A DNA stretch of 64,000 nt from Candidatus Omnitrophota bacterium (GCA_041309005.1 JBFZAN010000053.1:34252-98251), one strand, 5' to 3'; numbered from the stretch's first letter, positions 24,836 to 61,279 are shown. A program made the numbers and translations. The notes: a model not told the origin generated them from the sequence alone.

Positions 24836-25669
24836 ATGCGCGATGAGATGAATAAAGCATTGGACGAGGTAGAATTTACCATTTTTGATACGGAAACGAC
24901 CGGCCTGGAGCCGGGATCAGGCGACAGGATAGTGGAAATCGCGGCAATACGGTTTAGGGGCAAGGAAACAGTCTCCACCTTCCAGACCCTCGTGAATCCG
25001 AACCGGCAGGTCTCTGAGGGCGCATTCCGGGTGAACCACATAACCCGGGAAATGCTCGAAAGCGCCCCCGCCATAGAAGCAGTGCTGCCCGATTTTCTGA
25101 ATTTCATCAAAGGCAGCTGCCTTTGTTCTTACAACGCTCCCTTCGACATGGAATTCCTGGAGAACGAATTAAAGCTTGCCAATGTCAGTCCGCCGGCCGG
25201 CCTGGTGGTGGTGGATATCCTCAGCATGGCAAGAAAACTTTTGCCCGGTCTCCCGCGTTACGCGCTCTGGTCCGTCGCGCAGAAACTCGGGGCCGCCTGT
25301 GAGCAGCGCCACCGCGCATTTGCCGACGTAGAAATGAGCCTGGACGTGTTCAGGAAATTAGGGGACATAATGAGACTGAAGCGCATAATCGATTATAAAG
25401 GGCTGGTCGTTTTATTCGGCCTGGACTCTCCATTTTTACAGGATATTACCAGCCAGAAGATCGCCCAGATACAGGAGGCCATCGACCTGGGGGTAAAGAT
25501 CAGGATCCAGTATTTTTCCAGTTCCGGCGCTCAGGTTTCCGAACGCGAAGTGGCGCCCAAAGTAATAAAACTCGACAATAACAAAGCGTACCTGGTCGGT
25601 TATTGCTGCTTGAAGCACGAGGAGCGTACATTCAGGATAGATGGCATATTACACCTTGAAATCATATAA
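24836..25669 (+). CDS. DnaQ-like 3'-5' exonuclease (DEDDh) fused to a C-terminal WYL domain
   Basis: Exo I FTIFDTETTGLEP, Exo II SYNAPFDMEFL, Exo III HRAFADVEMS. The C-terminal IRIQYFSSSGAQVSEREVAPKVIKLDNNKAYLVGYCCLKHEERTFRIDGI fits the WYL consensus. Confidence 0.7.
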   Translation: MRDEMNKALDEVEFTIFDTETTGLEPGSGDRIVEIAAIRFRGKETVSTFQTLVNPNRQVSEGAFRVNHITREMLESAPAIEAVLPDFLNFIKGSCLCSYNAPFDMEFLENELKLANVSPPAGLVVVDILSMARKLLPGLPRYALWSVAQKLGAACEQRHRAFADVEMSLDVFRKLGDIMRLKRIIDYKGLVVLFGLDSPFLQDITSQKIAQIQEAIDLGVKIRIQYFSSSGAQVSEREVAPKVIKLDNNKAYLVGYCCLKHEERTFRIDGILHLEII

Positions 25670-27906: not shown

Positions 27907-30276
27907 ATGAAAAAATATCTATTGATGGCAGGGCTCTGTTGCGTGCTGTCTGCGATGGCAGGCGGCTGCGTCCAGGAAAACAAACTCACGCAGGCAAAAA
28001 ATTATTCCCACCTGTCAGATTCCTATTATCAGCGTGCCGCGGAGATTTATAAAGGCCTGATCGAAAAGGACCCTGATGATAAGGTATTGCGCTTCGGCCT
28101 GGGCAGGCTCTACTATGACCACGGCGCGTTCAGGGAAGCCGCCCTGGAGTTTAAAAAAGTCAATGACGCGCAAAGCAGGCAATTCCTCGCCCTCGCATAT
28201 TACAGGCTGGGCGATTTTACCGACGCGCTGGAAATCTTTAACCAGGAACAGCCGTCGCAGGACGAATACCGGTATTATTACGGTCTCACCTGCGAGAAAT
28301 TGAACCTTTTTGACAAGGCCCTGGAGCTCTATAAAGAGGTGAAGACCGTTCCCTTTGAGGGCTTTGCCCGGGGGCGGATCAACGCCATCGAAAAGCAGGT
28401 GCGAGGCATTCTTATAAAGGACTTAAGCCCCGAGGTAGATACACTCCTTGCTAACGCGCCGCCGCAGAAGGAGTACCCGCAGGCCGGGGCCTTGATCTTG
28501 CGCTGTGACGAAAGGATCGAGATCAGCCCTGACAACACGCTGGTTTCGTATCTGCATTACGTGGTCAAGATCCTCAATGAGCGCGGCAAGGAAGATTTTT
28601 CGGAGTCCCACATAGAGTATGATTCTACCTATGAAAAAGTGGAGCTGGAATTCGCCCGCACCATAAAACCAGACGGTACGGTAGCTCAGGTAGGCAGTCG
28701 CCACATAAGGGACGTTTCCAAGTACCTGAATTTCCCGTTATACAGTAACGCGCGGATGTTCATTATCTCATTCCCCGAGATCACAGAAGGCGCCAGTATT
28801 GAGTACAGCCTTAAGGTTTCCCGCAGCCAGCTTATTAATAAGAAAGACTTTATTATGAGCTATCCTGTCCAGGCAGATGAGCCGGTCATAGACGCGAACT
28901 TTGTCATCCGGGCGCCTAAGAATAAAATCATGCATCTGAGGGCCATAAACCAGCGGTATAACAGTTTCGGCGCGCCGCTCGCCGCGCAAATATCGCAAGA
29001 AGGCGAATACGTGCTCTACCGGTGGCACTTTAAGGATATTCCGCAGATAATCCCCGAATCCAATATGCCTCCCGGAGTCTTGATAAATCCAACCATATTG
29101 CTATCAACATTTAAAAACTGGCAGGATATTTATGAGTGGTGGTGGTCTCTTGCGAAAGATAAAATCAAGGCAGACGCTTCGATAAAAGAAAAGGTCCAAA
29201 GCCTCATCAAAAACAAGGTCACTCCGGAAGCAAAAGTCAGGGCGCTCTATAATTTCTGCGCCCAAAAGATCCGCTATGTGGCGGTTGAATACGGGCAGGC
29301 CGGCTACGAGCCCCATAAAGCCGAAGATATATTCAGGAATAAGTACGGGGACTGCAAGGACCAGGCGATCCTCCTGACCACCATGCTCAAGGAAGCGGGA
29401 TTTTCCGCCTGGCCCGTGCTCATCCCCACAAAAGACAGCTACAATCTTATTCAGGACTTTCCTTCGCTTTTCTTTGACCACTGCATCGCCGCGGTGTCCC
29501 TGGGCGAGGAGATTGTTTTTCTCGACCCTACCGCAGAGACGTGCGCCTTCGGGGACTTGCCCGAGGGGGACCAGGGAAGACAGGTGCTCATATGCAAAGA
29601 AGACGGGTATGTGATTTGGCCGACCCCGTTGTTCGGTGCTTCACATAACCGCGTTACCCAGGACCTTAAGGTCACGCTGCGTAACGACGAAAGCATGCTC
29701 GCCGAAAAGACCATTTTAATCCAGGGCGCTTATGACCAGGCGCAAAGGCGCTGGTTATTATATACTCCTCCGGAGCTTATCAGACAGTATTTGGAAGAAA
29801 AGATACAGGGCGTATCCATAGGCGCGCGCCTTGAGCGCTATACAGTCAAGAATCTCGAAGACCCGAATACGCCGGTAACCTTGTCCTACGCGTTCAGCGG
29901 CGACGAATACCTTGAGCCAGCGGGCAAACTCCGGATCGCTTCTCAGCTGGCAGGATTAGACGCTTCTTGTGTGGCAAAAAATACCCGCACCTACCCGATA
30001 GATTTCGGCATCCTGGATACCAGAGAGTCGCTATACGAGATAGAGCTTCCTTCCTCGCTTATCGTCAAATACCTGCCCGAAGAGACCAGCGAAGATAACC
30101 CCTGGATGAAATTTCATGTTACCTACGAATATAAGGGCAGAAAGGTCCGCTTTAGGCAAAGGCTGGAACTAAAGAAGAGCGTGATTTCCCAGGAAGAATA
30201 CCCTCAGTTCAAGAAAGACTATGAAAGCCTTGCCAGGAAGATCAAGCAGAGGCTGGTATTGGAAAAAGTAAAATGA
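27907..30276 (+). CDS. lipoprotein with TPR repeats, DUF3857-like and transglutaminase-like domains
   Basis: Lipobox LSAMAGGC; N-terminal TPR-like repeats; NKYGDCKDQAILLTTML is the transglutaminase-like catalytic Cys block; 789 aa. Confidence 0.6.
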   Translation: MKKYLLMAGLCCVLSAMAGGCVQENKLTQAKNYSHLSDSYYQRAAEIYKGLIEKDPDDKVLRFGLGRLYYDHGAFREAALEFKKVNDAQSRQFLALAYYRLGDFTDALEIFNQEQPSQDEYRYYYGLTCEKLNLFDKALELYKEVKTVPFEGFARGRINAIEKQVRGILIKDLSPEVDTLLANAPPQKEYPQAGALILRCDERIEISPDNTLVSYLHYVVKILNERGKEDFSESHIEYDSTYEKVELEFARTIKPDGTVAQVGSRHIRDVSKYLNFPLYSNARMFIISFPEITEGASIEYSLKVSRSQLINKKDFIMSYPVQADEPVIDANFVIRAPKNKIMHLRAINQRYNSFGAPLAAQISQEGEYVLYRWHFKDIPQIIPESNMPPGVLINPTILLSTFKNWQDIYEWWWSLAKDKIKADASIKEKVQSLIKNKVTPEAKVRALYNFCAQKIRYVAVEYGQAGYEPHKAEDIFRNKYGDCKDQAILLTTMLKEAGFSAWPVLIPTKDSYNLIQDFPSLFFDHCIAAVSLGEEIVFLDPTAETCAFGDLPEGDQGRQVLICKEDGYVIWPTPLFGASHNRVTQDLKVTLRNDESMLAEKTILIQGAYDQAQRRWLLYTPPELIRQYLEEKIQGVSIGARLERYTVKNLEDPNTPVTLSYAFSGDEYLEPAGKLRIASQLAGLDASCVAKNTRTYPIDFGILDTRESLYEIELPSSLIVKYLPEETSEDNPWMKFHVTYEYKGRKVRFRQRLELKKSVISQEEYPQFKKDYESLARKIKQRLVLEKVK

Positions 30277-32222
30277 GCACAAGCAAAGCGATCCCCCCTG
30301 AAGAAAAAAGGCGTTATCTGCGCCTTAATTCCGTGTTTCCTGTGCAGTTTAGGCTTTTGAGCCTGGACGGGAGCCGGTTTTTCTCCGACTGGATACAGGG
30401 CTTTACTAATAATATAGGTAAGGGTGGGATATGTTTGAGGGTGAATAACCTGCCTGAGGATTTGGCGGCCAGAGTAAAGGCCTTGCAGGCAAAATGTTTC
30501 CTTGAGGTAGAGGTCCCGCTGGGCAACGCCGCGGTAAGCGCGCAGGCAGCGGTCGTCTGGGTCAGGGAGATCGCAGGCCAGCAGGATAAGCTTCTTATCG
30601 GCCTTGCGTATGAAAAGATCCTCGCCGACAGTAACAGCCGGCTTATGCGTTATGTGTGGCTGAAGAAATTGTTTGTGCCGGTAATGGGGGCAACCATGAT
30701 CCTTTTGGGGCTGGGCCTCGCAGCCAACAGCTACCTGAACATAAAGCTGACCGAAGGGAATAAGGCCCTCGTCGGTCAACTCGTTACAATCCTGCAGGAC
30801 TCCCGCCTCGCCCAGAAAAAGATACGCCAGATAAGCCGCGATAAAGACGACCTGCAGCTTAAGATCCAGGCTTTGCAGGTGCGTATCCAGGCTCTCGACG
30901 AAGAAAAGAAGAAGCTGGAGGAAGGCGCATGGCTTCAGGAGCTAAAGAATGCCAGGAAGATCGGCGAGATGAAGGCTCAGATGGAAAAGCTTGGCCGGGA
31001 AAAAGCCCCTCTGCAGGAGCAATTAATCGCGTTACAGCATAAAGAGGGCGCCGTGACCGAAGAGCTGCTGCAGTTGCATCAGAAAAGAGCGGTCATAGAA
31101 AAAGCGAATTTTGACAAAATGTACCAGTGGCTTACCGTGCACCAGAACCCCCGCAGCGGCCTGGTAATGAGCTTTGAAGGGGATTCGGATGTCTCCAACT
31201 GGGGATTTATTTACGATGAGTCTCTTGCGGCGCAGGCATTTACGAAATTCCTGGATTTTGAGCGCGCGAGGAAGATCCTCGATTTCTTCGCAAAAAAAGC
31301 CAAAAGAAGAGAGGGCTTGTTTTTAAACGCCTATTATGTAGATGACGGCAGCCCCGCCGAATACATAGCACATGCGGGTCCGAATATCTGGCTGGGTATA
31401 GCCATGCTCCATTATACTGATAAAAGCAGCGATGGCCGGTATCTGCCTTTAGCCGAGGAGATCGCCCAGGCGATCATAGGGCTGCAGGATGAAGAGGGGG
31501 GTATCAGGGGAGGCCCTAATGTCGCCTGGTATTCCACCGAGCATAACCTGGATGGCTACGCTTTTTTTGACATGCTCTACAGCCTTACGGGACAGAAGAA
31601 GTACCTTGAAGCGAAAGAAAAGGTGTTACGCTGGTTAGTTAAGCATACCTATGACAGGCCCGGCATACCTATTATGCGCGGCAAAGGAGACTCCACTATC
31701 GCTACCGATACCTACGCTTGGTCTATCTCCGCGTTAGGCCCGGGCAAGCTGGAAGAGCTGGGTATGAGCCCGGACAAGGTCGTTGAATTTGCGGAAGAGA
31801 ATTGCGCGGTAGAGGTTACATTCCTCAGACCGGAAGGAACTCCGGTCAAGGTCAAAGGGTTCGATTTCGCCGCGCAACGCCACCTGGCCAGGGGCGGGGT
31901 AGTATCCAGCGAATGGACCGCCCAGATGATTCTCGCATTTAAAATAATGGCTGATTTCTATCACCGCAAGGACATGGACGCAAAAGCCTCCTCGTATGAG
32001 TCCAAGGCCGATGACTATTTAGCTCAGTTGTGCAACATGATCATTTCCAGCCCTTCGCCATCCGGACAAGGCGAAGGCTGCCTTCCCTACGCTTCCGCTG
32101 ATTCCGTGGACACCGGACATGGGTGGGTGACCCCCAAGGGCAAGGCAACGGGTTGCGTGTCCGGCACGGTATACACGATATTCGCATATTACGATTATAA
32201 CCCCTTGAGCTTAAAAGAATAA
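30273..32222 (+). CDS. PilZ-domain membrane protein with coiled-coil and C-terminal domain tentatively alpha/alpha-toroid (glycoside-hydrolase-like)
   Basis: N-terminal PilZ motifs RRYLRLNSVFPV (RxxxR) and NNIGKGGICL (DxSxGG-like); TM helix VPVMGATMILLGLGLAANSY; long coiled coil (QLKIQALQVRIQALDEEKKKLEEGA...); ~360-aa C-terminal domain with a repeated aromatic/Gly pattern. The toroid/GH-like fold is a guess from composition only. Confidence 0.55.
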   Translation: MSTSKAIPPEEKRRYLRLNSVFPVQFRLLSLDGSRFFSDWIQGFTNNIGKGGICLRVNNLPEDLAARVKALQAKCFLEVEVPLGNAAVSAQAAVVWVREIAGQQDKLLIGLAYEKILADSNSRLMRYVWLKKLFVPVMGATMILLGLGLAANSYLNIKLTEGNKALVGQLVTILQDSRLAQKKIRQISRDKDDLQLKIQALQVRIQALDEEKKKLEEGAWLQELKNARKIGEMKAQMEKLGREKAPLQEQLIALQHKEGAVTEELLQLHQKRAVIEKANFDKMYQWLTVHQNPRSGLVMSFEGDSDVSNWGFIYDESLAAQAFTKFLDFERARKILDFFAKKAKRREGLFLNAYYVDDGSPAEYIAHAGPNIWLGIAMLHYTDKSSDGRYLPLAEEIAQAIIGLQDEEGGIRGGPNVAWYSTEHNLDGYAFFDMLYSLTGQKKYLEAKEKVLRWLVKHTYDRPGIPIMRGKGDSTIATDTYAWSISALGPGKLEELGMSPDKVVEFAEENCAVEVTFLRPEGTPVKVKGFDFAAQRHLARGGVVSSEWTAQMILAFKIMADFYHRKDMDAKASSYESKADDYLAQLCNMIISSPSPSGQGEGCLPYASADSVDTGHGWVTPKGKATGCVSGTVYTIFAYYDYNPLSLKE

Positions 32223-37298: not shown

Positions 37299-38294
37299 AT
37301 GCTTATGGCGAAAACAGTCGGATTAACATACGATTTAAAGACGGATTACGAGTTTAAGGATAGCGATCCTCCTGACGCGAACGCGGAGTTTGATCATCCG
37401 GATACCGTTTCTCTTATTGCTTCAGCCATCGCATCAAGGGGCTTTAAGGTAAAAAGGATCGGTAATGTCTCAAGCCTCCTGGAGAATATCGCGGACCTCA
37501 AGGTAGACATCGTATTCAATATATCCGAAGGCGTCTCCGGCAGGAACCGCGAATCCCAGGTGCCTTTATTGCTGGAAATGGCGGGTATCCCTTTTGTGGG
37601 AGCGGATTCCCTGAGTCTCGGGATCTCTCTGGATAAGCTTATGGCAAAAAAGATCTTTATCGCTGAAAAAATCCCCACCCCCAGATTTATCGAAGTCAAG
37701 GATTCCGCCGCGCTTGACTCAGACCACCTTAAATTCCCCCTGATCGTAAAGCCGCGTTTTGAAGGTTCCTCCAAAGGCTTAAGCGAATCCTCGCGCGTGG
37801 AGAATGCCGAAGAGCTCAAGAAGCAGGTCGAATATATCATCTCTACCTATAAGCAGCCCGCGCTGATAGAAGAATTTATACGGGGGGAAGAGTTCACCGT
37901 CGCGCTTATCGGCAACGAGCCTCCTGAAGTGCTGCCGATAGTCCAGATAAAGATAGACGGAAGACTTAAGCTTAACGATAAGTTCTACACCTTCGGCCAC
38001 ATCAAGGACGATAAATTGGAATATGTGTGTCCCGCGAGGGTCTCTCAGGAGTTAAAGCTTGAAATCGGCGAGCTTGCCCGGCGGACTTTCGAAGCGATCG
38101 AATGCCGCGATTTCGGCAGGGTCGATTTCAGGGTCGATGAAAAAGGCAAGCCCTACGTGCTTGAGATAAACCCCCTGCCTTCCTTGTCGTCGGCAGACGT
38201 ATTTATGGTAGTGGCACATCAGCTAGGGCTTTCGTATGAAGATATCATCGGCAGGATATTGCAGGCTGCCCTTACCAGGTATAATTTGAATTGA
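37299..38294 (+). CDS. D-alanine--D-alanine ligase-family ATP-grasp enzyme (paralogue 1)
   Basis: Ddl-like N-domain (KTVGLTYDL...), central GRNRESQVPLLLEMAGIPFVGADSLSLGISLDKLMAKKIF, ATP-grasp C-domain (EEFIRGEEFTVALI, VDFRVDEKGKPYVLEINPLP). Confidence 0.7.
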   Translation: MLMAKTVGLTYDLKTDYEFKDSDPPDANAEFDHPDTVSLIASAIASRGFKVKRIGNVSSLLENIADLKVDIVFNISEGVSGRNRESQVPLLLEMAGIPFVGADSLSLGISLDKLMAKKIFIAEKIPTPRFIEVKDSAALDSDHLKFPLIVKPRFEGSSKGLSESSRVENAEELKKQVEYIISTYKQPALIEEFIRGEEFTVALIGNEPPEVLPIVQIKIDGRLKLNDKFYTFGHIKDDKLEYVCPARVSQELKLEIGELARRTFEAIECRDFGRVDFRVDEKGKPYVLEINPLPSLSSADVFMVVAHQLGLSYEDIIGRILQAALTRYNLN

Positions 38295-38302
38295 GCGCGA
38301 AT

Positions 38303-39310
38303 ATGAAAATCGCTTTGACGTGCAATCTTAAAAAAGAGGATGATTCAAAACCCCCGGATTATTTTTCAGAATTTGATTCCCAGGAGACCGTAAACGCCAT
38401 CACCTCGGCGCTGGAGACCAAGGGCCACAACGTCGATTTTATCGACGTGGAACAGCCTAACCTCTTTACCTTTTTCAAAAAAAATCGAGTCGATATGGTA
38501 TTCAATATCGCGGAAGGCAAAACCGGCAGGTACCGTGAGTCGGAAGTGCCCGCCATACTCGATTATTTGAATATCCCCTACACCGGCTCCAATACCCTTT
38601 CCTTAGCCGTCGCGTTAAATAAAGCGCTTACCAAAAAAATACTGAAAGCAGAAGGTATTCCCACTCCGGCCTTTCAGATCTTCAGCAAGGGCAACGAAAA
38701 GCTCGATGCGGCCCTGCGTTTTCCTCTTATCGTAAAGCCAAACTATGAAGGCTCCGCAAAGGGCATCAATAAAACCAATGTAGTGCATAGTCCGCGAGAG
38801 CTTTTTGACAAGGTCAGGGAGACCATTGATTTTTACAAGCAGGGGGTACTGGTCGAAGAATTTATCGAAGGCAGGGAATTGACGGTAGGGATATTGGAGA
38901 ATGGCAAAGCACAGGTGCTTCCCATCCTGGAGATAGATTTCTCCACCTGCTCCGGGAGCGGCGAGTATTTTTATTCCTGGCGCATGAAAGAATACCAGGG
39001 CAACGCCGAAATGGGACTGACCCCGACGTTTCACTGCCCTGCCAAGCTGGATGCGGAAACAGAGCGCAAGGTCAAAGAGGCGGCGTTAAAGACGCATAGC
39101 GCGATAGGCTGTCTGGATATTTCCCGCACCGATATACGCTTAAGCAGGGACAATATCCCGTATGTCCTTGAGATAAACCCTTTGCCGGGGCTGGACCCCA
39201 AAGAATCCAATTTTCCGATCATGGCGTACGCGGCGGGCATGACCTACGAAGATCTTATTGAGGGCATATTGTTAAATGCCTATAAAAGGAGGAGTCTGGA
39301 AGATGAATAA
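38303..39310 (+). CDS. D-alanine--D-alanine ligase-family ATP-grasp enzyme (paralogue 2)
   Basis: Same architecture as the upstream gene (MKIALTCNL..., SEVPAILDYLNIPYTGSNTLSLAVALNKALTKKIL, EEFIEGRELTVGIL, ISRTDIRLSRDNIPYVLEINPLPGL); ATG 38303 preferred over the in-frame TTG 38291. Confidence 0.7.
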   Translation: MKIALTCNLKKEDDSKPPDYFSEFDSQETVNAITSALETKGHNVDFIDVEQPNLFTFFKKNRVDMVFNIAEGKTGRYRESEVPAILDYLNIPYTGSNTLSLAVALNKALTKKILKAEGIPTPAFQIFSKGNEKLDAALRFPLIVKPNYEGSAKGINKTNVVHSPRELFDKVRETIDFYKQGVLVEEFIEGRELTVGILENGKAQVLPILEIDFSTCSGSGEYFYSWRMKEYQGNAEMGLTPTFHCPAKLDAETERKVKEAALKTHSAIGCLDISRTDIRLSRDNIPYVLEINPLPGLDPKESNFPIMAYAAGMTYEDLIEGILLNAYKRRSLEDE

Positions 39311-40493: not shown

Positions 40494-41798
40494 GTGCATA
40501 AAAAAGGCCGCATAACGTTTTTTCTGGCGCTCGTCCTGCTTCTGCCGTTTCCCGCCTTCGCGCAACTGAACCCGGAAATCAGACAATATATTGTCAGCCG
40601 CTCGCTGGACATGCTGGAGTCCCAGCATAACCCTCTTGCCCAGGGCGCTTACAATACGTACTATCCCCCGCAGGGTCCAGACGAAGAACCTTACCAGCCT
40701 TCCAGGCCGCCGCGTGACCGGGACGAAGTGGCCGAAGAATACATCATCGAGCAGGAAAATAAGTCTTCCGATACGCTTTATAATTTTATTTTCGGTAACG
40801 GACTGGGGAAACTGTCGCTGGGATTCGAATTAGGCAGCATCAAGGGGGATACCAAATACCGCATCAGCTTCGACAATCCTTACGATATTGGCGGTCACGG
40901 AGAAAGCGAGCTTAAGTGGCCTATCGACACCACGCTGATCGGCCTTTCCGCCGCGCTCCACTACAAGCCGCAGGAAGACAATATGCTTACGCATGACAGG
41001 TTCCGCCTCAGCTTCAAATGGCTTACGAAGGCAGGCAAGAGCAGGGGCAATATGAAAGATTCCGACTGGATCGAGAACGACGTCGGATACATAGATTATA
41101 ACGATGATGGCGTCTTGAACGGCTCCAGCGCCTGGGCGACGAACCATGACGGCCTCGATATATATTCGGAATCGCCGGTAAAGCTGGACGAAGCAAACAT
41201 CTTCGATATCAACTACGTCTATAACCTCTGGGTAAGGGATACGTGGGCGCTGGGGCCCGTACTCGGCTATCACCACCAGAGTTTTAAGTTTTCAGCCTAC
41301 AGCGTGAACCAGGTAGGCTACGGCCCTTACGGCCCCGCCGGGCTTTTTGACCAGAGCTTTCAGGACACCCGCGGCCTTAAATGGGGAGAATATCAGGCGA
41401 GTTATCACGTGCCGTATCTGGGGCTGAACAGCGAGTTCAGCCTGAACGAAAAGCTCTCCTTTCTTATTAACCTGGGGTATTCTCCCTGGGTGAGGATCAA
41501 GGACAGGGATTCGCATCTGTACCCGACTATGGACGAAGCCTTAGGTTATAATGTCGATATGCTTTCTCCCGGCCGGAGCCACGGCAAGGCATTCCTCTTC
41601 GGCAGCGAAGGCAGCTGGAAGCTGGCCCAAGGGTGGTTACTGAATGTGGGCGCTAATTATATCTCCATCAACGCGAAAGGCGACCTCGTCCAGCAGCACT
41701 ATGCTGCCGGCGTCCTGACCGGGGAAAGCGAACCCGTTGATGAAAAAGTAAAATCCAGGTATTGGCTTATCAACGCAGCGCTGCAATACACATTCTAG
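40494..41798 (+). CDS. secreted protein, probable outer-membrane beta-barrel protein
   Basis: Signal peptide FFLALVLLLPFPAFAQ, Gly/Tyr/aromatic-rich alternating strands, C-terminal ...ALQYTF; 7 nt after KamA. Confidence 0.45.
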   Translation: MHKKGRITFFLALVLLLPFPAFAQLNPEIRQYIVSRSLDMLESQHNPLAQGAYNTYYPPQGPDEEPYQPSRPPRDRDEVAEEYIIEQENKSSDTLYNFIFGNGLGKLSLGFELGSIKGDTKYRISFDNPYDIGGHGESELKWPIDTTLIGLSAALHYKPQEDNMLTHDRFRLSFKWLTKAGKSRGNMKDSDWIENDVGYIDYNDDGVLNGSSAWATNHDGLDIYSESPVKLDEANIFDINYVYNLWVRDTWALGPVLGYHHQSFKFSAYSVNQVGYGPYGPAGLFDQSFQDTRGLKWGEYQASYHVPYLGLNSEFSLNEKLSFLINLGYSPWVRIKDRDSHLYPTMDEALGYNVDMLSPGRSHGKAFLFGSEGSWKLAQGWLLNVGANYISINAKGDLVQQHYAAGVLTGESEPVDEKVKSRYWLINAALQYTF

Positions 41799-49778: not shown

Positions 49779-51569
49779 ATGCGTGATGATAAAACGCCGG
49801 AGCGTAAGGCGGTAAGCCGCGGTTCCGGCCCGAATGCAAAAAGCGGCCTGTCACAGTTCCTTTCACTTCTGGGGAGGTTTTTTACCTCTTCGCAGGACGT
49901 GCTGGGGATAGATATCGGCTACAGCTACATGAAAATACTGCAATTGCAGAAGACGGCCAAGGGCTACGTGATCGCGCATTGCATTACGCGCGCCATACCC
50001 CAGAACGTAAAAGAGGACCCCGCAGGGCGCAGGAAATTCATCCAGGGCGCGGTGAAGCAGTTTATTTCCGATTCCAAGATAAAAACCAACCTCGCGCGCC
50101 TCGCTATCTCGGGGAAAGGGGTCTTTATTTTTTCGATAACCGCCCCCGCCGCTATCAGTAAAAAAGACTTAAGGGGGCTGGTGGGCATTGAGTTGAAAAA
50201 ACGCCTCCCCTTTCAATTAGAGATCAGCAATATGTCGTATGATTTTTTTACCACAGGCCAGCAACAGGACGAGAAGGGCGTAAGCCTTCAGGTGACCTGC
50301 GTCTCAGTGGACCGACTGACCATAGACGAACAAATCGGCCTTTTAAAGGACATGGATATAAGTCCGGTTGCCATCAACGCCGTTTCAGACGCGCTGGGCA
50401 ATCTCCTGCCTTATTGCCTGAACGCTCCCGGCGACAGGACCGTAACGCTTTTGGATATAGGCGCGAATACTTCCTTGCTGAATTTTTATAAAGGCAAAAA
50501 CCTGGTGTTTTCGCGCGAAATACCCGTTGGCGGAGAGCATATAACCCGCGCCATGGCCAAGCCCATCCCCGCTTCCTCAGGTACGGTCGAACTTGGCGTC
50601 GAGGATGCCGAGAAGATCAAGCGTAACGTCGGCATCCCCCTGGAAGACGAATCGCGGCAGGATTTCTTGACGGATTACGGCGTATTCCAGGGAGAACAGA
50701 TCTCGACCGCCTTAAGGCCGACGCTGGAGAGGTTGATCCTGGAGATCACCAGGACCGTAAGCTATTATACTAAAACGTTCAAGGCAGAAGATACGGAAGC
50801 ATTGTATATCACCGGCGGCAGCTCGCGCCTGCGGAATATCGATAAGTTCCTGTTATATAACCTCGAGAGGCTCACAAAAGTAGAACACCTTCCCGTATTG
50901 AGCGCGGTGAAGGGCTGGTCAGAGACCGGCGTCTTCAGGCAGGAGCTGGTCATGGAACAGGCTGCGCCTCATCTGGCGGTAGCCTTCGGCCTTTGCCTGG
51001 GAAGCGGAGGGAGAGTAAACCTTTTACCGGTGAAGGAAAAGGTAGAGCAAAAAACAGTTTTCCTGATGCTCCTTTTTAAGGTATTCTTCCCGGTGATCCT
51101 GGTGCTGGTGCTGTCGTGGTACGTCATAAGTATCGTGAACAACCATAAATATAGAAATTTAATCAGGAAGACGAACTCCGATATAAGCCGCCTGGAACCG
51201 ACTGCCTCAAAGGTGAAGGAGTATCTGAATATAAAGACAAAATTTGAAGAGAGAAAAGAGTCGCTGGAAAAAGCGGAAGGCAAACAGCCTCTCTGGTGGG
51301 GCATATTCAAGGAACTAAGCAATATAACACCCCCGGGCGTAGTGCTTACGCAGATAACCGCCGTAGCCGGGACCGAGCCGAAACAGCTGCGCCTGGCGGG
51401 CAGGATCGTCTCCCGGTATACGGTAGTGGATGTGGAGCTTTCGCAATACCTTATCGCGCTGGAAGAATCGCCTTATTTCAGGGATGTCGTATTGGTCTCC
51501 AGCGAAAAAGACCTGTATTCTCCGATGCCGGCTGCGAAATTCGAGATCACCTGCACGCTGGTGTATTGA
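49779..51569 (+). CDS. pilM: type IV pilus assembly protein PilM fused to PilN
   Basis: N-terminal actin-like ATPase fold (VLGIDIGYSYMKILQL..., ...TLLDIGANTS..., ...YITGGSSRL) = PilM; then a TM helix VFLMLLFKVFFPVILVLVLSWYVISIV and a periplasmic PilN-like domain, all in one 596-aa ORF. Confidence 0.75.
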   Translation: MRDDKTPERKAVSRGSGPNAKSGLSQFLSLLGRFFTSSQDVLGIDIGYSYMKILQLQKTAKGYVIAHCITRAIPQNVKEDPAGRRKFIQGAVKQFISDSKIKTNLARLAISGKGVFIFSITAPAAISKKDLRGLVGIELKKRLPFQLEISNMSYDFFTTGQQQDEKGVSLQVTCVSVDRLTIDEQIGLLKDMDISPVAINAVSDALGNLLPYCLNAPGDRTVTLLDIGANTSLLNFYKGKNLVFSREIPVGGEHITRAMAKPIPASSGTVELGVEDAEKIKRNVGIPLEDESRQDFLTDYGVFQGEQISTALRPTLERLILEITRTVSYYTKTFKAEDTEALYITGGSSRLRNIDKFLLYNLERLTKVEHLPVLSAVKGWSETGVFRQELVMEQAAPHLAVAFGLCLGSGGRVNLLPVKEKVEQKTVFLMLLFKVFFPVILVLVLSWYVISIVNNHKYRNLIRKTNSDISRLEPTASKVKEYLNIKTKFEERKESLEKAEGKQPLWWGIFKELSNITPPGVVLTQITAVAGTEPKQLRLAGRIVSRYTVVDVELSQYLIALEESPYFRDVVLVSSEKDLYSPMPAAKFEITCTLVY

Positions 51570-51577
51570 GGTGGGAA

Positions 51578-52198
51578 ATGATAACGCTTAAGAAAACAAG
51601 CAAATTTATGCAGGCCGGGCTCCTGTGCCTTGTCTTTTTTTTCGTTCTCGTCGCGCTGTATTTTGCCTGGGGGAGATCTCTTTTTAAGGCCGAGAAGAAG
51701 TTGAAAACGGAATTCAGCCTCAAGCAATCAGAGCTCAAAGAGCAGGAGGTGTTGATCAGGACCGTTCCTGACCCTAAGAAGGCCATCGAAGAGATCGAAA
51801 AAAAGGCGGATGAATTCAAAGATATCGAGGTCGGGAAACGGCAGGTCCCCCGGCTCATCCATCTGCTGGGCAGCGCGGCCGCGGAACACAACATAAATAT
51901 TGTTTCCATAAGGCCGCGGGAGGACATAAAAGTCGCGAATGAGAATCTTCCGTCGGGAGTGACCAAGGTGTATGTCGAGATGGTGCTTGGCTGTCCTTAC
52001 CAGGTGCTGGGCGGGTATTTAGCCGACCTGGGCAAGCTGCCGGTTACCTTTATCATTGAGTCGGTCTCCATAGCGCCCAGGGAAGAAACGGCAACGCCTG
52101 CTCCCGACGCGAAGAAGGCGGCAGTAAGCAAGGGAGAAAGGCCGCAAGAGCTCTTGATAACCCTGCTTTTAAGCACCTATATGATCTATGAAATATAA
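51578..52198 (+). CDS. pilO: type IV pilus assembly protein PilO-like
   Basis: Single N-terminal TM LLCLVFFFVLVALYFAW, coiled coil, periplasmic domain; operon position after PilMN. Start at ATG 51578 after the GAGGTGGG RBS. Confidence 0.55.
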   Translation: MITLKKTSKFMQAGLLCLVFFFVLVALYFAWGRSLFKAEKKLKTEFSLKQSELKEQEVLIRTVPDPKKAIEEIEKKADEFKDIEVGKRQVPRLIHLLGSAAAEHNINIVSIRPREDIKVANENLPSGVTKVYVEMVLGCPYQVLGGYLADLGKLPVTFIIESVSIAPREETATPAPDAKKAAVSKGERPQELLITLLLSTYMIYEI

Positions 52199-52215
52199 GG
52201 TACGGCCGTACGCAT

Positions 52216-52665
52216 ATGGATAAACAGCAAAAACAACTTATTATAATCGGGGTCCTGGTGGTAGTGTTGGCGCTGGCGCTCGTGAGTAATTTAAAAAAGA
52301 AGCCCAAGAAAAAAGCAGCCCCCTTGCCCAAGCCGGATGCGGCGTCTTTGGCCAAATCCGCGCCTGTGGTCAGCGCCGCGCCTGCCGCGGATGCGGGCGT
52401 GCTGGGCGAGCAGATCGAGCGCACGAAGCTTACATGGGGACGAGATCCCTTTTCCGTTAATACGGACAAAACGTTCCAGTTAAGCGAGCTTAAGCTCCAG
52501 GGCATCTCCTTCGGCACAGATAAAAAAGGTTTCGCATTTATTAATGGCGAGATTGTGCAAAAGGGTGATAAAATAGGAGATTACGAGGTCATAGATATCG
52601 AAAAAGAAAGAGTGCTTCTCAAGAGAGGCAGCCAGGATTTTTACCTGGTTTTCCCTGGAGAATAG
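52216..52665 (+). CDS. pilP: PilP-like pilus assembly protein
   Basis: N-terminal TM, Pro/Ala-rich linker, C-terminal beta domain LKLQGISFGTDKKGFAFINGEIVQKGDKIGDYEVIDIEKERVLLKRG typical of PilP/GspC HR domains; immediately precedes the secretin. Confidence 0.5.
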   Translation: MDKQQKQLIIIGVLVVVLALALVSNLKKKPKKKAAPLPKPDAASLAKSAPVVSAAPAADAGVLGEQIERTKLTWGRDPFSVNTDKTFQLSELKLQGISFGTDKKGFAFINGEIVQKGDKIGDYEVIDIEKERVLLKRGSQDFYLVFPGE

Positions 52666-52693
52666 CGGGACAAATAGGCAAAGAGGTCGAAAA

Positions 52694-54094
52694 ATGAAGA
52701 GAAAATTGGCGTGTGTCTGTATTATGGCTTTGATGTGTCTTAGCGCCTGCGTTCATCCGCCCCTGTGCGCGCAGGAGAAGGAAAACCTGGTGATCGAATC
52801 CCTGGAGTTCAGGGAGGTCGATATCAAAGATGTCTTGCGGCAGCTCGCCAAGCAATACAACCTCAACATCGTATTTTCTGAGGCGGTGAAAGGGTTGGTC
52901 ACCGTGCAGCTTAACAACGTGAGCATCGAGCAAGCGCTGGATTCGATCATCACCGTGAACGGCTTCGCGTATACCAAGAAAGAGAACGTCTATAAAGTGA
53001 CCACGCAGGAAGAGGCGCATAAGCAAGGCAAACAGACAAAGCTCTTTAAATTAAATAACGCCGATTCGGCTAAACTGAAGACCACCTTAGAAAAGTCTTT
53101 GACCCCGGAAGGCTCTATTGAGGCGGACAGCCGTTCCAATTCCATAATCATCACGGATTCTCCCGCGGTCATAAGCAAGATAGAGGCGATGATCCCCGAT
53201 CTGGATGAACTTACGCCCCAGGTATTGATCGAGGCGCGCCTGATTGAGGCGTCGCTCAACGACAATGACAAGCTGGGCTTTGATTGGTCTACGACGGTCG
53301 CGGCGTCCGGCTCTTCGCGCCCCATCACGTTTCCTTTTAGCGGCAAGGGCAATTATAACCCCGGGACGTTTACTCCCCTGAACACGACAGCCGGTTTCAC
53401 GGGGCCGTACGCCTTTCCTTCCGCGGCCGCGGAAAATTTCACCTTTGGCACGCTTGATTTTACTTCCCTGAAGGCTGTGCTCGACATGTTAAAGACGCGC
53501 AAAAAGACCAAGCTCGTCGCCAATCCCAGGATAGTCACCCTTAATAACCAGAACGCCTCCATTAATGTCGGTAAAGTCCTGGCGTTGCCTACCTACGAGA
53601 GGAACGAAACAACCGGAAAGCTGGAGATCACCGGATGGACTAATTATAATGTAGGCGTCAATTTAAGCGTCACTCCGCAGGTAAGCCCCGACGGCCATAT
53701 CAAGCTGAAATTAAAGCCCGAGGTAAGCAGCCTCATCGGGTACGCTTCTCAAAGGGACGGCGTCAATGAGGGCCCTATCACTTCGTCCCGGACGGCGCAA
53801 ACCGAAGTGCAGATGAGAGACGGCCAAACGGTCGTGATCGGAGGGCTGGTCAAGGAAGAATCATTCACCATCACAAAGAAGATACCCGTGCTGGGGGATA
53901 TCCCCATCCTCGGGGCTTTGTTTACGCGAAAGGAAGTCGGCTCGACGGAGAACCCTACCGAAAAAACCGACTTGCTAATCTTTGTGACAGCCCGTATAAT
54001 TAAAGAAAGCGACGCGCCACTGCTCGCAAACGACAGCGCTCTGGTGACTTCCGGGAGGAGGCCGTTTAAACTGGACATGAGAAAGATCAAATGA
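52694..54094 (+). CDS. pilQ: type IV pilus secretin PilQ
   Basis: Signal peptide; N0/N1-type domains (VIESLEFREVDIKDVLRQLAKQYNLNIVF...); secretin core QTVVIGGLVKEE...KIPVLGDIPILGALFT. Confidence 0.85.
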   Translation: MKRKLACVCIMALMCLSACVHPPLCAQEKENLVIESLEFREVDIKDVLRQLAKQYNLNIVFSEAVKGLVTVQLNNVSIEQALDSIITVNGFAYTKKENVYKVTTQEEAHKQGKQTKLFKLNNADSAKLKTTLEKSLTPEGSIEADSRSNSIIITDSPAVISKIEAMIPDLDELTPQVLIEARLIEASLNDNDKLGFDWSTTVAASGSSRPITFPFSGKGNYNPGTFTPLNTTAGFTGPYAFPSAAAENFTFGTLDFTSLKAVLDMLKTRKKTKLVANPRIVTLNNQNASINVGKVLALPTYERNETTGKLEITGWTNYNVGVNLSVTPQVSPDGHIKLKLKPEVSSLIGYASQRDGVNEGPITSSRTAQTEVQMRDGQTVVIGGLVKEESFTITKKIPVLGDIPILGALFTRKEVGSTENPTEKTDLLIFVTARIIKESDAPLLANDSALVTSGRRPFKLDMRKIK

Positions 54095-55449
54095 CGGATA
54101 AGAAATTCTTTGTTTTGCTGGTGGCGACGATAGGGATATTCCTTGCGCTTTTTTACTCCGCGAGGAGCGCCAGGCGTACCCAGACCGCCCAAACGCCGCC
54201 GGCGGGCAGCTCGCTGCCCCAGGCCACGATACCGATGCTGGAATCAAGGATGCAGCAGTTAAAGGACGCAGTCTCAACCTACGGCCAGCTAAACGTTTCG
54301 CTGCATAAGGCCTTCAACGAAGAAAAGGAAAAGTCGCTTGAGGTACGGGAAAAAGCGATGAGCCTGCAGGAAGAATTAAAAAATGTCACCGCGCAAAAAG
54401 ACGCCCTCTCAAAAGAATTGTCCGACACCAGGACGAAGCTGGAAATGACCCAACCTTTAAAGCAGAAGCTTATCCAGATGGAGACTGCGTTATCGGGATT
54501 GAACTTCAGCCAGGATATGCAGGGTGAGGTGGTGGCCCGGCTGGACACGCTGATCAAGGAGCTGGATTCCATCGACCAGCAGATGCCGTATCTGCTCAAT
54601 GAAAACATGGCCTTTAAAGTGCAGGTGCAGAACCTTTCCGATCTTCTTGGCCGCAAAGAGCAGGAACTGGCTGTACTGAAACAGCAGGCAGAAGACGCAA
54701 AAGTCAAAAATCAAACGCTCAGCAAGAACGTGGACGCGCTCTTAGAGCAGCTTATGGCGGCCAGCAAAGGGAGGCAGGCGCTGGAGCAGAAGGCCGCTGA
54801 TCTGGAAAAGGTCGCTTCGAATCTAAAAAAAGCCGGCTATTTCCTGAAGGAAAAATTAGAAAAGACGCGCAAAGAGCTCGGGGAAGTCAAGGAAAGAGAG
54901 GCAAGGGCCGCTCAGGAAAAACAGGAGGCTTTGGGCGGGCTGGGCGCAAGGCAGGAGCACCTGGCAGCGCTTGAAACCAGAAACCAGGCATTGGAACAGG
55001 AACTGGCGTCGCTCAAGGAAAAACTGGAGACGCTCAGTAGGGAATACGCGGGTTTCAAGGACGAACACGCAACCGCGCAGCTGGCGATCAGGCAGACTGA
55101 AGCGGAATTAAAGAAAAACAGGGATGAAATATCCTATTTTAAGGATAAGCTTGCCGACGCGGATACGAGGTTCATCGAACTTCAGTCAAAATATAACGAG
55201 GTGAAAAAAGAATCCGCTGTATTGCGGGAACAGTACGTGAATGTACAGCTGGAAAGGGAGAGGTTAAGGGATGAATTACAGCGGGCGCGGATGAATTTGA
55301 GCGAACTGCAGAATAAATTCCAGAAAATAGGCACTATGTTTATGTCGCAACCGCCGCCGCAGATGGCTTCGCCCGAAGAAGGGGCCTCTTCTCGCAGGAA
55401 GGTCGACGTGGAGCTTCTTCCCAAGACGAAAGAGGGATCTGAACAATGA
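54091..55449 (+). CDS. membrane-anchored long coiled-coil protein
   Basis: N-terminal TM FFVLLVATIGIFLALF followed by ~400 aa of heptad-rich sequence (many EL/QL/KEL repeats). Confidence 0.45.
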   Translation: MTDKKFFVLLVATIGIFLALFYSARSARRTQTAQTPPAGSSLPQATIPMLESRMQQLKDAVSTYGQLNVSLHKAFNEEKEKSLEVREKAMSLQEELKNVTAQKDALSKELSDTRTKLEMTQPLKQKLIQMETALSGLNFSQDMQGEVVARLDTLIKELDSIDQQMPYLLNENMAFKVQVQNLSDLLGRKEQELAVLKQQAEDAKVKNQTLSKNVDALLEQLMAASKGRQALEQKAADLEKVASNLKKAGYFLKEKLEKTRKELGEVKEREARAAQEKQEALGGLGARQEHLAALETRNQALEQELASLKEKLETLSREYAGFKDEHATAQLAIRQTEAELKKNRDEISYFKDKLADADTRFIELQSKYNEVKKESAVLREQYVNVQLERERLRDELQRARMNLSELQNKFQKIGTMFMSQPPPQMASPEEGASSRRKVDVELLPKTKEGSEQ

Positions 55450-56183
55450 GCCGCGATGCGCTTATATTGTGCGCTGCCGTGTGCGTGTCCGTTTCTGCCG
55501 CAATACGGGCCTATGGCGCGCCGGCCGAGGCTGGCCTGCCACCTGGCCGCATGATGCCGGCGCCCGCTGCCGACGCGGCGATAGCCGTTACGCAGGATGC
55601 CGGGTTGACCAGGCAGGAAAAGATAGAAAAGGCGCGCCAGCTTTATTCTCACGGGGAACAGCTTCTGGAGGACGGGAATTTTGTCGCCGCAGACGACGCG
55701 CTTAAAAGAGCGCAACGGTTACTCGAGGAATCCATACCCCGGCAAGCGCCGCTGCGTTTAAACGAAGCGCCTGCGTCCGATGATGACGGGGTGGCCGTGG
55801 AAGAACGGGTATGGCCCGCATCCAAGGCGTGGGAACTGTCTCAAGAAGGCGCTTCAGAAGAAGCGGTCGGCTATTACCTGAAGGCGATCGATCTTGAACC
55901 CGGGCGCGCCGACCTGTATTATAATCTGGGGGTAGAGTATTTAAAGACCGGTCAATATGCGTTTGCGGTAAAGGCCTTTAAAGAGTCGCTGCGCCTTGAC
56001 CCGAAGGACGCGTTCTCCTGTTATAATTTGGGGGTGCTCTACGAAGATTATCTTAAGGAGAAAAAACAGGCGCTGGAATATTACCGGAAGTTCCTGAAGC
56101 TTGCGCCCAACGCGGAGGAAGCGCCCGAAGTAAAGCGCTGGATACAGGAACTGATCAACTATTATAGCGAGGATGAACGATAA
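55446..56183 (+). CDS. TPR-repeat protein with signal peptide (PilF/Tgl-like pilotin candidate)
   Basis: Signal peptide LILCAAVCVSVSAA; TPR motifs (AVGYYLKAIDLEPGRADLYYNLGVEYLKTGQYAFAVKAFKESLRLDPKDAFSCYNLGVLYE...). Confidence 0.55.
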   Translation: MSRDALILCAAVCVSVSAAIRAYGAPAEAGLPPGRMMPAPAADAAIAVTQDAGLTRQEKIEKARQLYSHGEQLLEDGNFVAADDALKRAQRLLEESIPRQAPLRLNEAPASDDDGVAVEERVWPASKAWELSQEGASEEAVGYYLKAIDLEPGRADLYYNLGVEYLKTGQYAFAVKAFKESLRLDPKDAFSCYNLGVLYEDYLKEKKQALEYYRKFLKLAPNAEEAPEVKRWIQELINYYSEDER

Positions 56184-57876: not shown

Positions 57877-57879
57877 AAA

Positions 57880-59109
57880 ATGCCTACGTACGTATATAAA
57901 GCGGTAGACCAATTGGGTAAGCTTGTGAAGGGCGAGATGGACGCGGTAAGCGAAGTGGAGTTGACCACGCAGCTAGCCAAAATCGGGTATCTGCCCGTAA
58001 GCATAAGCTTCAAGACCAAAGGGGGAAAATCAAAAGAAGCCGCAGAAAGCTTTCTGAAGAGCGGGTATAAGGTTGATACCCAGGCGCTGGTGGTATTCAC
58101 CCGTCAGTTCGCGACGATCATAAAAGCCGCAGTCCCCATACTGGAAGGCCTTGGGGTATTGGCTGAGCAGGCGGAGGACCCGGCGCTCAAAGAGGTGCTG
58201 CGTAAAGTCATCCATGATGTTGAGGGCGGCGCGAGCCTCTCCCAGGCGATGGCAAAACACCCGGGCGTGTTTTCCAAGCTGTATATCAATACGGTGATCG
58301 CGGGGGAAAGCGCCGGAGTGTTGGACAAGGTGCTGCTAAGGCTCGCCAAGATGCTGGAAAATGATCAGGAGACGCGGTCCAATATCCAGTCTGCGTTACG
58401 CTACCCGATCATGGTGGTCATTGCGATGCTGGTGGCGGTTGTCGTATTGTCGGTATTTGTTATCCCCCAGTTTGCCAAGATCTATACGAGCGCCAAAGTG
58501 GCGTTGCCGCTGCCTACGCAGGTAATGATATTCATAAGCAATATTCTCATCCATCACTGGTTCATCCTCGTGCCTGTTGTGATAGGCGTAATTTTTGCCT
58601 TCCAGTGGTACATTAATACAACCGCGGGCAGGTGGCTCTGGGACGGCCTTAAATTCAAAGTGCCGATCGTCAGCAAGCTGTACACCAAAATGACGATGTT
58701 GCGCTTTGCCTCGATGCTCAGCGTCCTTTATCAGGCGGGGCTTCCCGTGCTCAGCACGCTGGATATCGTGGGGATGACTATCGGCAACGTGGTCCTTTCC
58801 AGGGAAGTGGACGTGATAAAACGCGATGTCGCCGACGGTAAAGGTATTTCAGGCGCGGTGTTGAACAGCCAGTTTTTCCCCAGGCTCGTCGGGTATATGA
58901 TCGCGATAGGAGAAAAAAGCGGCCAGCTTCCGATGATGCTGGATTCCCTGTGCGAATACTTCGATCTGGAAGTGAAGACCGTCACCAAGAACCTGACTAC
59001 CATGATCGAACCGGTGATGACCGCCGTATTAGGCACGGTCGTGGTCGGGATGGCGTTATCGATCTTTCTGCCGTTGTGGAACATGATACAGGTAATCAAG
59101 GGGGGATAA
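57880..59109 (+). CDS. pilC: type IV pilus platform protein PilC (GspF family)
   Basis: Two GspF repeats (..GESAGVLDKVLLRLAKMLE.. and ..GEKSGQLPMMLDSLCEYF..), three TM helices. Confidence 0.9.
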   Translation: MPTYVYKAVDQLGKLVKGEMDAVSEVELTTQLAKIGYLPVSISFKTKGGKSKEAAESFLKSGYKVDTQALVVFTRQFATIIKAAVPILEGLGVLAEQAEDPALKEVLRKVIHDVEGGASLSQAMAKHPGVFSKLYINTVIAGESAGVLDKVLLRLAKMLENDQETRSNIQSALRYPIMVVIAMLVAVVVLSVFVIPQFAKIYTSAKVALPLPTQVMIFISNILIHHWFILVPVVIGVIFAFQWYINTTAGRWLWDGLKFKVPIVSKLYTKMTMLRFASMLSVLYQAGLPVLSTLDIVGMTIGNVVLSREVDVIKRDVADGKGISGAVLNSQFFPRLVGYMIAIGEKSGQLPMMLDSLCEYFDLEVKTVTKNLTTMIEPVMTAVLGTVVVGMALSIFLPLWNMIQVIKGG

Positions 59110-59980: not shown

Positions 59981-60017
59981 CGCACACAAAAGGTATCGAC
60001 AAGAGGAGGTGATCGGC

Positions 60018-60227: not shown

Positions 60228-60317
60228 CTTTTCACGGTATCTACGCGTGTGGTGTTATTGCCGCGAAACCAAAAACGCTTTAAAAATCGCTTTGAGGCGT
60301 TTTGATAAGGAGAAGGT

Positions 60318-61254: not shown

Positions 61255-61279
61255 CCGCCTGTTAAAAAGGAGCCCGCCA

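Follow-up and report, generated by a model that had tools for sequence, protein, structure and literature searches.

A conserved Omnitrophota gene predicted to join a cytoplasmic PilZ domain to a periplasmic (alpha/alpha)6 barrel of an uncharacterised family

Results

A PilZ gene conserved across Omnitrophota

The window analysed in this study is a stretch of 64,000 nt from Candidatus Omnitrophota bacterium (GCA_041309005.1, JBFZAN010000053.1:34252-98251). A first reading, made from the sequence alone (hereafter, the sequence-only reading), had singled out a gene at positions 30273..32222 of the + strand as a candidate receptor of cyclic di-GMP (c-di-GMP), in which a cytoplasmic PilZ domain is connected through one transmembrane (TM) helix to an extracytoplasmic coiled coil and a C-terminal domain of uncertain fold. 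The ORF list and the translation showed an intact open reading frame (ORF) of 649 aa at this position, and its homologues confirmed the gene. A large protein collection contained 1,155 homologues (E <= 1e-3). Identity was 61-69% over 97-100% of the length in the best 120; wherever the source of these 120 names an organism, it is Omnitrophota/Omnitrophica. Likewise, a scan of one genome per species yielded 357 related stretches, and the best 80 of them carried a full-length or nearly full-length copy with 55-64% identity, almost all being labelled Omnitrophota. The gene is thus real and conserved, and it occurs widely among Omnitrophota, most often in one and the same syntenic context. The product is very probably a single-pass inner-membrane protein, N-terminus in and C-terminus out, composed of a PilZ domain, a TM helix, a two-armed helical stalk and an (alpha/alpha)6 barrel. 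Motif, column and stalk-length counts given below refer to the best 120 homologues, 119 of which were aligned in some columns.

The N-terminal PilZ domain

The PilZ domain occupies residues 11-128 (30303..30656, +), where Pfam PF07238 matched from profile position 1 to 100 of 102 (E 5.9e-4, 20.6 bits). A profile search of 26 homologues returned PilZ in 25 of them at E <= 0.1, with a best value of 3.7e-10, and one homologue (P0103) individually exceeded the Pfam gathering score of 22.5 bits, with 24.5 bits. When the family profile was compared with the PDB, the solved c-di-GMP receptor YpfA/MotI (5vx6) was matched at E 0.003 with both PilZ motifs aligned. Apart from coiled-coil noise, NCBIfam gave just a weak match to TIGR02266, a PilZ-like paralogue domain. 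The full-length AlphaFold2 (AF2) model placed strands at residues 16-29, 41-49, 52-58, 74-79, 88-99 and 106-116, followed by a helix from 118, with a predicted local distance difference test (pLDDT) of about 88 in the PilZ region; this pattern of six strands and a helix was judged from secondary structure only.

The motifs RxxxR and [D/N]hSxxG have been defined for PilZ domains by Galperin and Chou (10.1101/814665), and the sequence-only reading had credited the protein with both. The first of them, R13-R-Y-L-R17 (30309..30323, +), was fully borne out, R13 and R17 being kept in 119/119 aligned homologues. The second, N47-I-G-K-G-G52 (30411..30428, +), is present with a Gly at the position of the Ser. 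Its N/D, its hydrophobic residue (I/V/L) and its final Gly (G52) are each found in 120/120 homologues, while position 49 is G in 64, S in 48 and A in 5. A BLASTP alignment with the stand-alone PilZ protein encoded in the same window (60318-60689) laid 'EKRRYLR' on 'EKRQYQR' and 'NNIGKGG' on 'RDISAGG'. The N-terminus is a PilZ-type beta-barrel with an invariant RxxxR and a [D/N]-h-[S/G]-x-x-G motif, and from the profile matches and the BLASTP alignment we regard the PilZ assignment as firm at the family level.

A membrane helix followed by a two-armed stalk

Residues 133-151 (30669..30725, +) reached a Kyte-Doolittle average of 2.13 over 19 residues and were the sole such segment of the protein. 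The 15 residues on their N-terminal side contain four K/R, against two in the 15 residues on the C-terminal side. Hydropathy and flanking charges are those expected from the single TM helix that had been proposed. In the AF2 model, the C-terminal helix of the PilZ domain, the TM helix and the next 67 residues form one unbroken helix (118-218), interrupted at 219-222 and followed by a second helix (223-289) that leads directly into the opening helix of the C-terminal domain. Residues 152-289 or thereabouts are helical, with heptad periodicity from ~162 to 210 in one frame and from ~218 to 270 in a second frame, in agreement with the coiled coil of ~130 aa read previously.

Two arms can be distinguished in the stalk, arm 1 at residues 152-218 (30726..30926, +) and arm 2 at residues 223-289 (30939..31139, +), both on the periplasmic side of the predicted topology. 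Segments 163-205 and 235-286, within these arms, have an identical length in all 120 homologues. All the stalk indels fall in residues 205-235 (30885..30977, +), the variable middle or tip that contains the predicted break; this region measures 18-48 residues, changes in steps that are not heptads and shows the lowest conservation of the protein (36% identity). A stalk with constant arm lengths and a variable middle could be either a helical hairpin whose tip varies or two rigid coiled-coil segments joined by a hinge.

The C-terminal domain is predicted to be an (alpha/alpha)6 barrel

Structure prediction delimited residues 286-649 (31128..32219, +) as one folded domain. Residues 275-649, modelled alone with 120 sequences, gave twelve helices with a pLDDT of 87.7 and a predicted template modelling score (pTM) of 0.91. 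Comparison of this model with known structures placed carbohydrate-active folds on top, with glycosidases as the best matches: MmpH (7qsj) scored 33.1 and dextran dextrinase 32.8, followed by a GH15-related glycosidase (30.0; GH, glycoside hydrolase), sugar 2-epimerases (about 29), glucoamylases (28.9), GH8 (27.8), GH88 (26.8), GH76 (24-26.4) and terpenoid cyclases (about 25). Foldseek concurred, with MmpH at E 7e-10. The overall fold was closest to that of the GH15/MmpH-like inverting (alpha/alpha)6 glycosidases (clan GH-L type). According to the model, then, the C-terminal domain folds as an (alpha/alpha)6 barrel and belongs to an uncharacterised family whose nearest structural neighbours are the inverting endo-mannosidase MmpH and GH15-type enzymes. 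The sequence-only reading had tentatively proposed, from composition, an (alpha/alpha)6 fold of glycoside-hydrolase-like or carbohydrate-binding type, and the model supports that guess. Neither of the two outcomes that would have refuted that reading, a C-terminal model unlike any carbohydrate-active fold or PilZ motifs lacking profile support, was observed. The composition itself was also confirmed (G 9.2%, Y 5.6%, F 4.7%, W 1.9%), but the aromatic and Gly-rich 'repeats' correspond to the helix hairpins of the barrel and not to sequence repeats.

At the sequence level, neither Pfam nor the PDB offered a glycosidase match for the 649-aa protein. Pfam had no match to PF03663 (GH76) at E <= 1; a direct single-sequence search of the PDB returned coiled-coil noise only, profiles being required; and no GH15 or MmpH chain was found among the PDB sequence and profile matches at E <= 10. 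Sub-threshold GH76 matches at E <= 0.1 were seen in 21/26 homologues (best, 1.7e-7), and the distant relatives P0214 and P0225 obtained 17-19.6 bits against a cut-off of 25.9. Moreover, a profile built from 41 diverse relatives matched the GH76 structures 6u4z (E 1.8e-8), 4mu9 (3.1e-6) and 4c1s (3.4e-5), in alignments that span only about 100 residues. These profile matches point to a remote homology between the barrel family and GH76 that is significant but partial.

The same alignments set 'HAGPNIWLG' of our protein against 'DDNIWIAL' in 4mu9 and 'IAAMEWLG' in the 6shm mutant. Where GH76 enzymes present 'DDNxW', the barrel family presents 'GPNxW', the two Asp positions being occupied by Ser/Gly and Gly/Pro. 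This Asp-Asp is the catalytic pair of GH76, mutated to Ala in 6shm (D136A/D137A). In 90 diverse copies of the barrel domain, G369 and P370 are kept in 94% and 81%, respectively. The replacement of the pair excludes the GH76 mechanism in the barrel, and catalysis would therefore need another set of residues. With the catalytic Asp-Asp absent and the Pfam threshold not reached, membership of GH76 was rejected. A LanC-like reading was also set aside, C511 and C603 being kept only within the PilZ-type subfamily and not family-wide, as was a terpene-cyclase reading, for which no conserved DxDD motif was found. As regards these two cysteines (C511, nt 31803-31805; C603, nt 32079-32081), they are invariant or nearly so in the 120 PilZ-type homologues and not across the wider family, and could form a periplasmic disulfide.

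Conserved carboxylates at the helix starts of the barrel

Within the protein, conservation is highest in the barrel, whose mean identity is 71% versus 54.5% for the PilZ domain. Across the 90 diverse domain copies, conservation reached 94% for D315, 95% for E423, 90% for D427, 87% for D473, 95% for D479 and 97% for E547. Y314, Y354, Y606, W373, W618 and the motif G369-P-N-x-W373 are also conserved in the family, and all these polar and aromatic residues are present in the 649-aa protein. In the secondary structure of the model, D315, E423, D479 and E547 fall in the first turn of the helices starting at 313, 422, 478 and 546, D427 lies one turn further into helix 422, and GPNxW opens helix 368. 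In (alpha/alpha)6 glycosidases, the catalytic pocket is characteristically lined by every second helix, the inner ones, with their N-termini. Carboxylates at the starts of alternate helices therefore look like an active or sugar-binding site, and the model suggests that D315, E423, D427, D479 and E547 constitute an active pocket of a new type.

For MmpH, Asp47 or Asp50 has been proposed as the acid and Glu262 as the base, in a protein of 345 residues (PMC9883506). D315 and E547 are residues 41 and 273 of the 375-residue model, and hence similar to Asp47 and Glu262 in relative position along the chain.

The barrel family and its predicted export

Residues 280-649 were searched against 1.84 billion cluster representatives, which retrieved 851 clusters at E <= 1e-3, with 112 of them passing E <= 1e-30. 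Among the best 150 cluster representatives, 52 had the PilZ-TM-stalk architecture, 18 were short proteins anchored by an N-terminal signal or TM segment, and 19 were multidomain or giant proteins of 1,300 to 7,900 aa. The five short stand-alone relatives that were inspected (5/5) all start with a typical signal peptide. We consider the barrel extracytoplasmic because its stand-alone relatives have signal peptides and others lie inside giant Omnitrophota proteins. All the source names in the barrel family are 'hypothetical protein', with the exception of one giant Omnitrophota protein.

Giant proteins of 3,000-7,900 aa that contain the barrel include P0194, P0197, P0210, P0211, P0220, P0222 and P0270; P0222, from Omnitrophota, is named 'L,D-transpeptidase family protein, partial'. 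A GH76-like fold has been described in giant Omnitrophota proteins, where it was seen only by structure prediction (preprint 10.1101/2023.11.21.568195), and it is probably this same barrel domain. Separately, a 427-aa barrel homologue that starts with a signal peptide and ends in a hydrophobic tail (P0241/P0272) is annotated on 2.6-Mb contigs of the eukaryote Anaeramoeba flamelloides and could reflect either horizontal transfer or contamination.

The upstream gene and the neighbourhood

The gene located immediately upstream (27907..30276, +) overlaps the PilZ-barrel gene by 4 bp and encodes a lipoprotein-like protein of 789 aa, in which Pfam identified TPR, DUF3857, transglutaminase-core and DUF3858 regions. 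Its N-terminus, MKKYLLMAGLCCVLSAMAGGC, reads as a lipoprotein-like signal. The motifs GDC483KD, FDH525C and FLD540PT provide a Cys-His-Asp triad (C483, H525, D540) that is apparently intact, and the PDB search matched the 'putative protease' 3kd4 at E 0.003.

A transglutaminase-like gene lies directly upstream of the PilZ-barrel gene in 49/61 related genomes with enough sequence and is absent in the other 12. Six of these 12 carry hypF/C/D instead; in the remaining six, the PilZ gene comes right after an aminotransferase or an RNase_T-WYL gene. The possibility that a divergent transglutaminase-like gene was hidden in the 2.4-kb gaps of six genomes was discarded, the gaps being filled by hypF and hypD. 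Insertions of these hydrogenase-maturation genes (C-terminal part of hypF, hypC and hypD) were observed in loci L002-L004 (3106-5582), L026, L028, L031, L040, L042 and L060, either before the transglutaminase-like gene or replacing it. Downstream, a HhH-GPD glycosylase gene is directly adjacent in 63/69 loci.

In the window, the neighbours comprise PabB, an aminotransferase, the transglutaminase-like protein, HhH-GPD, an outer-membrane protein, an M20 peptidase, PAC2 and HAD. Most of the 80 related loci preserve a mixed block of ~12 genes (LPG_synthase_C, RNase_T-WYL, PabB, aminotransferase IV, HhH-GPD, M20, PAC2 and HAD). Given the synteny and the mixed functions of the whole block, adjacency says little about a functional link. 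We therefore largely rejected the neighbourhood as a guide to function, since this housekeeping mixture recurs from locus to locus and adjacency reflects mostly shared ancestry. A partnership between the transglutaminase-like lipoprotein and the PilZ-barrel protein is possible.

Other features of this region were noted. The RNase_T exonuclease encoded at 24836-25669 (+) is fused to a C-terminal WYL domain, and its position is conserved across related loci. The segments 37299-39310 (+) and 40494-41798 (+) were noted for two tandem genes for D-Ala-D-Ala-ligase-like ATP-grasp proteins, the first identified with Pfam and the second inferred from syntenic loci, followed by a lysine-2,3-aminomutase-like radical SAM gene and then by a homologue of omptin-family outer-membrane proteases. 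A 186-aa antisense ORF (30219-30779, -) lies wholly inside the junction of the two conserved + strand genes and is most likely spurious.

Other predicted c-di-GMP receptors in the window

Domain annotation revealed a type IV pilus or type II secretion system-like cluster at 49779-59109 (+), consisting of a PilM-PilN fusion, a secretin with STN, an unannotated 452-aa ORF, a T2SSE ATPase bearing a MshEN domain, of the c-di-GMP-binding type, and T2SSF. Directly after it (59123-62116, +) come genes for histidine-kinase-like, PilZ, receiver and MshEN+PilZ proteins. These include the canonical stand-alone PilZ protein at 60318-60689 (+), whose gene is overlapped by 8 bp by that of a receiver-only response regulator, and a two-domain MshEN+PilZ protein at 61280-62116 (+). 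Given several c-di-GMP receptors in the window, c-di-GMP signalling appears to be used by the organism. The EAL-like and HD-GYP-like matches of the 64-kb window are raw pattern matches only.

Discussion

How the PilZ-barrel protein might work

In the mechanism that we favour, the cytoplasmic PilZ domain would bind c-di-GMP, and binding would change how the continuous helix and the stalk pack, rotate or oligomerise. This change would in turn switch the activity, the reach or position, or the partner binding of the periplasmic barrel, in a form of inside-out signalling. The barrel would be an active enzyme on a glycan of the cell envelope or surface, most likely a hydrolase, with E547 as the base and D315 or E423 as the acid by positional analogy with Glu262 and Asp47 of MmpH. 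From the architecture, the conserved motifs and the fold, we infer that an intracellular signal probably controls a sugar-processing activity of the cell envelope, and we would give the complete mechanism, from c-di-GMP on PilZ through the stalk to a periplasmic glycan-active barrel, a probability of roughly 0.55.

Several observations weigh against this mechanism. On the receptor side, the PilZ score of the protein (20.6 bits) falls below the Pfam gathering score, the canonical Ser of the second motif is G49, and a motif scan found no GGDEF motif in the 64-kb window. On the output side, the catalytic Asp-Asp of GH76, the sole glycosidase family with sequence similarity, is replaced by Gly-Pro; sugar 2-epimerases and isomerases match the fold nearly as well as hydrolases; and the correspondence with MmpH residues is one of relative position only, not of superposed structures. 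Furthermore, the domains of the neighbouring genes include none for polysaccharide or glycan synthesis or export, and the source names of family members say only 'hypothetical' or 'PilZ domain-containing'.

The alternatives to this mechanism overlap in part and are not strictly exclusive. One of them takes the barrel as a non-enzymatic docking or sequestering module, so that the c-di-GMP-bound PilZ domain would make the periplasmic part capture or release a partner. The upstream transglutaminase-like lipoprotein would be the candidate, by analogy with the way LapD holds LapG, a logic that is established (PMC3032545). The 4-bp overlap and the position directly upstream in 49/61 genomes are in favour, as are the lipoprotein-like signal, the apparently intact Cys-His-Asp and the match to a 'putative protease' in the neighbour, together with the loss of the GH76 dyad from the barrel. 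However, the 12 genomes devoid of the neighbour retain an intact PilZ-barrel gene, the syntenic and mixed character of the 12-gene block means that adjacency may be mere shared ancestry, and the neighbour matches Transglut_core (PF01841), a family to which LapG is not known to belong. In addition, near-invariant buried carboxylates across such diverse architectures are more in keeping with catalysis or sugar binding than with a protein interface particular to one lineage. We consider docking unlikely as the function of the barrel.

Unlikely too is that the protein is a constitutively anchored periplasmic glycan enzyme whose PilZ domain has lost c-di-GMP binding and serves just as an anchor or interaction domain. 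The sub-threshold Pfam score and the Ser to Gly change, shared by about half of the homologues, might be taken in this sense, and loss of binding has been described for some PilZ domains (10.1101/814665). Against it, the Arg pair of RxxxR, the [D/N], the hydrophobic residue and the final Gly are kept in 119-120 of 120 homologues, which is hard to explain without a ligand; Ser and Gly versions of the second motif interchange among close relatives; and, according to the same review, PilZ domains that are part of fusions keep their binding (10.1101/814665).

Sugar 2-epimerases and isomerases being nearly equal to hydrolases among the fold matches, the barrel might instead have non-hydrolytic chemistry. 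It could epimerise or isomerise sugars, act on an envelope glycan as a lyase or transglycosylase, or resemble terpenoid cyclases and other (alpha/alpha)6 enzymes with non-carbohydrate substrates. We judge this quite improbable. Glycoside hydrolases supply the top two fold matches and the sole relatives at the sequence level. The small substrates and the cytoplasmic or membrane-embedded location of known AGE-type enzymes and terpenoid cyclases contrast with the exported barrel. Finally, the family has no conserved DxDD-type motif, our protein having D357-D358 where the consensus is N-D.

A last and highly improbable version would make the PilZ-stalk-barrel protein and the upstream lipoprotein a LapD/LapG-like inside-out switch assembled from unrelated parts, with PilZ in place of the degenerate EAL and the barrel as a periplasmic clamp, where c-di-GMP would set whether the protease stays bound to the inner membrane or is released to cut surface proteins, possibly including the giant Omnitrophota surface proteins that carry the same barrel; if true, it would tie c-di-GMP to attachment or predation in Omnitrophota.

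Returning to a c-di-GMP-switched, glycan-active barrel, PilZ receptors usually act on cytoplasmic targets, and what would be new here is a PilZ receptor coupled across the membrane to a periplasmic output of an uncharacterised glycosidase-like family. A literature search found no paper on a PilZ-TM-stalk-barrel fusion, nor on PilZ together with GH76. Omnitrophota form a phylum of ultra-small bacteria, few of them in culture, that may live by predation or parasitism. Should c-di-GMP indeed switch the barrel, the protein would offer a simple one-protein model of inside-out signalling, a first function for an (alpha/alpha)6 family of at least 851 sequence clusters with no characterised member, and a handle on the same domain in giant Omnitrophota proteins implicated in attack on prey cell walls.

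Comparison with known systems

The sequence-only reading had likened the logic of the protein to that of BcsA. In BcsA, a C-terminal PilZ domain gates the active site of a cytoplasmic family 2 glycosyltransferase (GT2), on the same side of the membrane. The periplasmic hydrolase BcsZ, of family GH8 and (alpha/alpha)6 fold, is a protein of its own and receives no c-di-GMP input. The resemblance consists in the proposed use of c-di-GMP through PilZ in a glycan system and in the presence of BcsZ among the fold matches of the barrel (Foldseek rank 50); Pfam detected no GT2 domain in the 649-aa protein. Because the PilZ domain of BcsA and its glycosyltransferase lie on the same membrane side, the analogy turned out to be loose, and Alg44 and LapD fit better.

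As for the barrel itself, the nearest structure is that of MmpH, a methylmannose polysaccharide endo-alpha-(1->4)-mannosidase (7qsj, PMC9883506), which shares 13-14% identity with no sequence-level match and acts on an intracellular mycobacterial polysaccharide, whereas the barrel is exported. Nearest in sequence are the GH76 alpha-1,6-mannanases (PF03663; 6u4z, 4c1s, 4d4a), which share the (alpha/alpha)6 fold and differ at the catalytic dyad.

LapD senses c-di-GMP with a degenerate EAL domain and transmits through HAMP and two TM helices (PMC3032545). The likeness could be of logic only, a cytoplasmic c-di-GMP receptor domain governing a periplasmic output, and it would extend to LapG in that most genomes have a gene for a transglutaminase-like putative protease beside the PilZ-barrel gene. 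Pfam and NCBIfam found no degenerate EAL/GGDEF, HAMP or LapD periplasmic domain in the 649-aa protein, and the neighbour matches Transglut_core, to which LapG is not known to belong, and is missing from 12/61 genomes.

To our knowledge, the only well-studied PilZ domain coupled to a periplasmic domain in one polypeptide is that of Alg44. HlyD-type proteins contain a helical hairpin. Alg44, the alginate co-polymerase of Pseudomonas aeruginosa, is a PilZ-HlyD fusion (10.1101/814665). It has, in the same order as our protein, an N-terminal cytoplasmic canonical PilZ domain, one TM helix and a periplasmic part. The two differ in that the lipoyl and beta-barrel domains of HlyD/membrane fusion proteins are replaced here by the (alpha/alpha)6 barrel, no HlyD-family domain being found in the 649-aa protein at E <= 1 with Pfam or NCBIfam, and in that the neighbours here include no Alg8-like GT2 synthase or exopolysaccharide cluster. 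By analogy, Alg44 (in architecture) and LapD (in logic) appear closer to the PilZ-barrel protein than BcsA, which seems the least similar of them. The PilZ-barrel gene would thus represent a second and structurally different solution, beside Alg44, for coupling a PilZ domain across the membrane.

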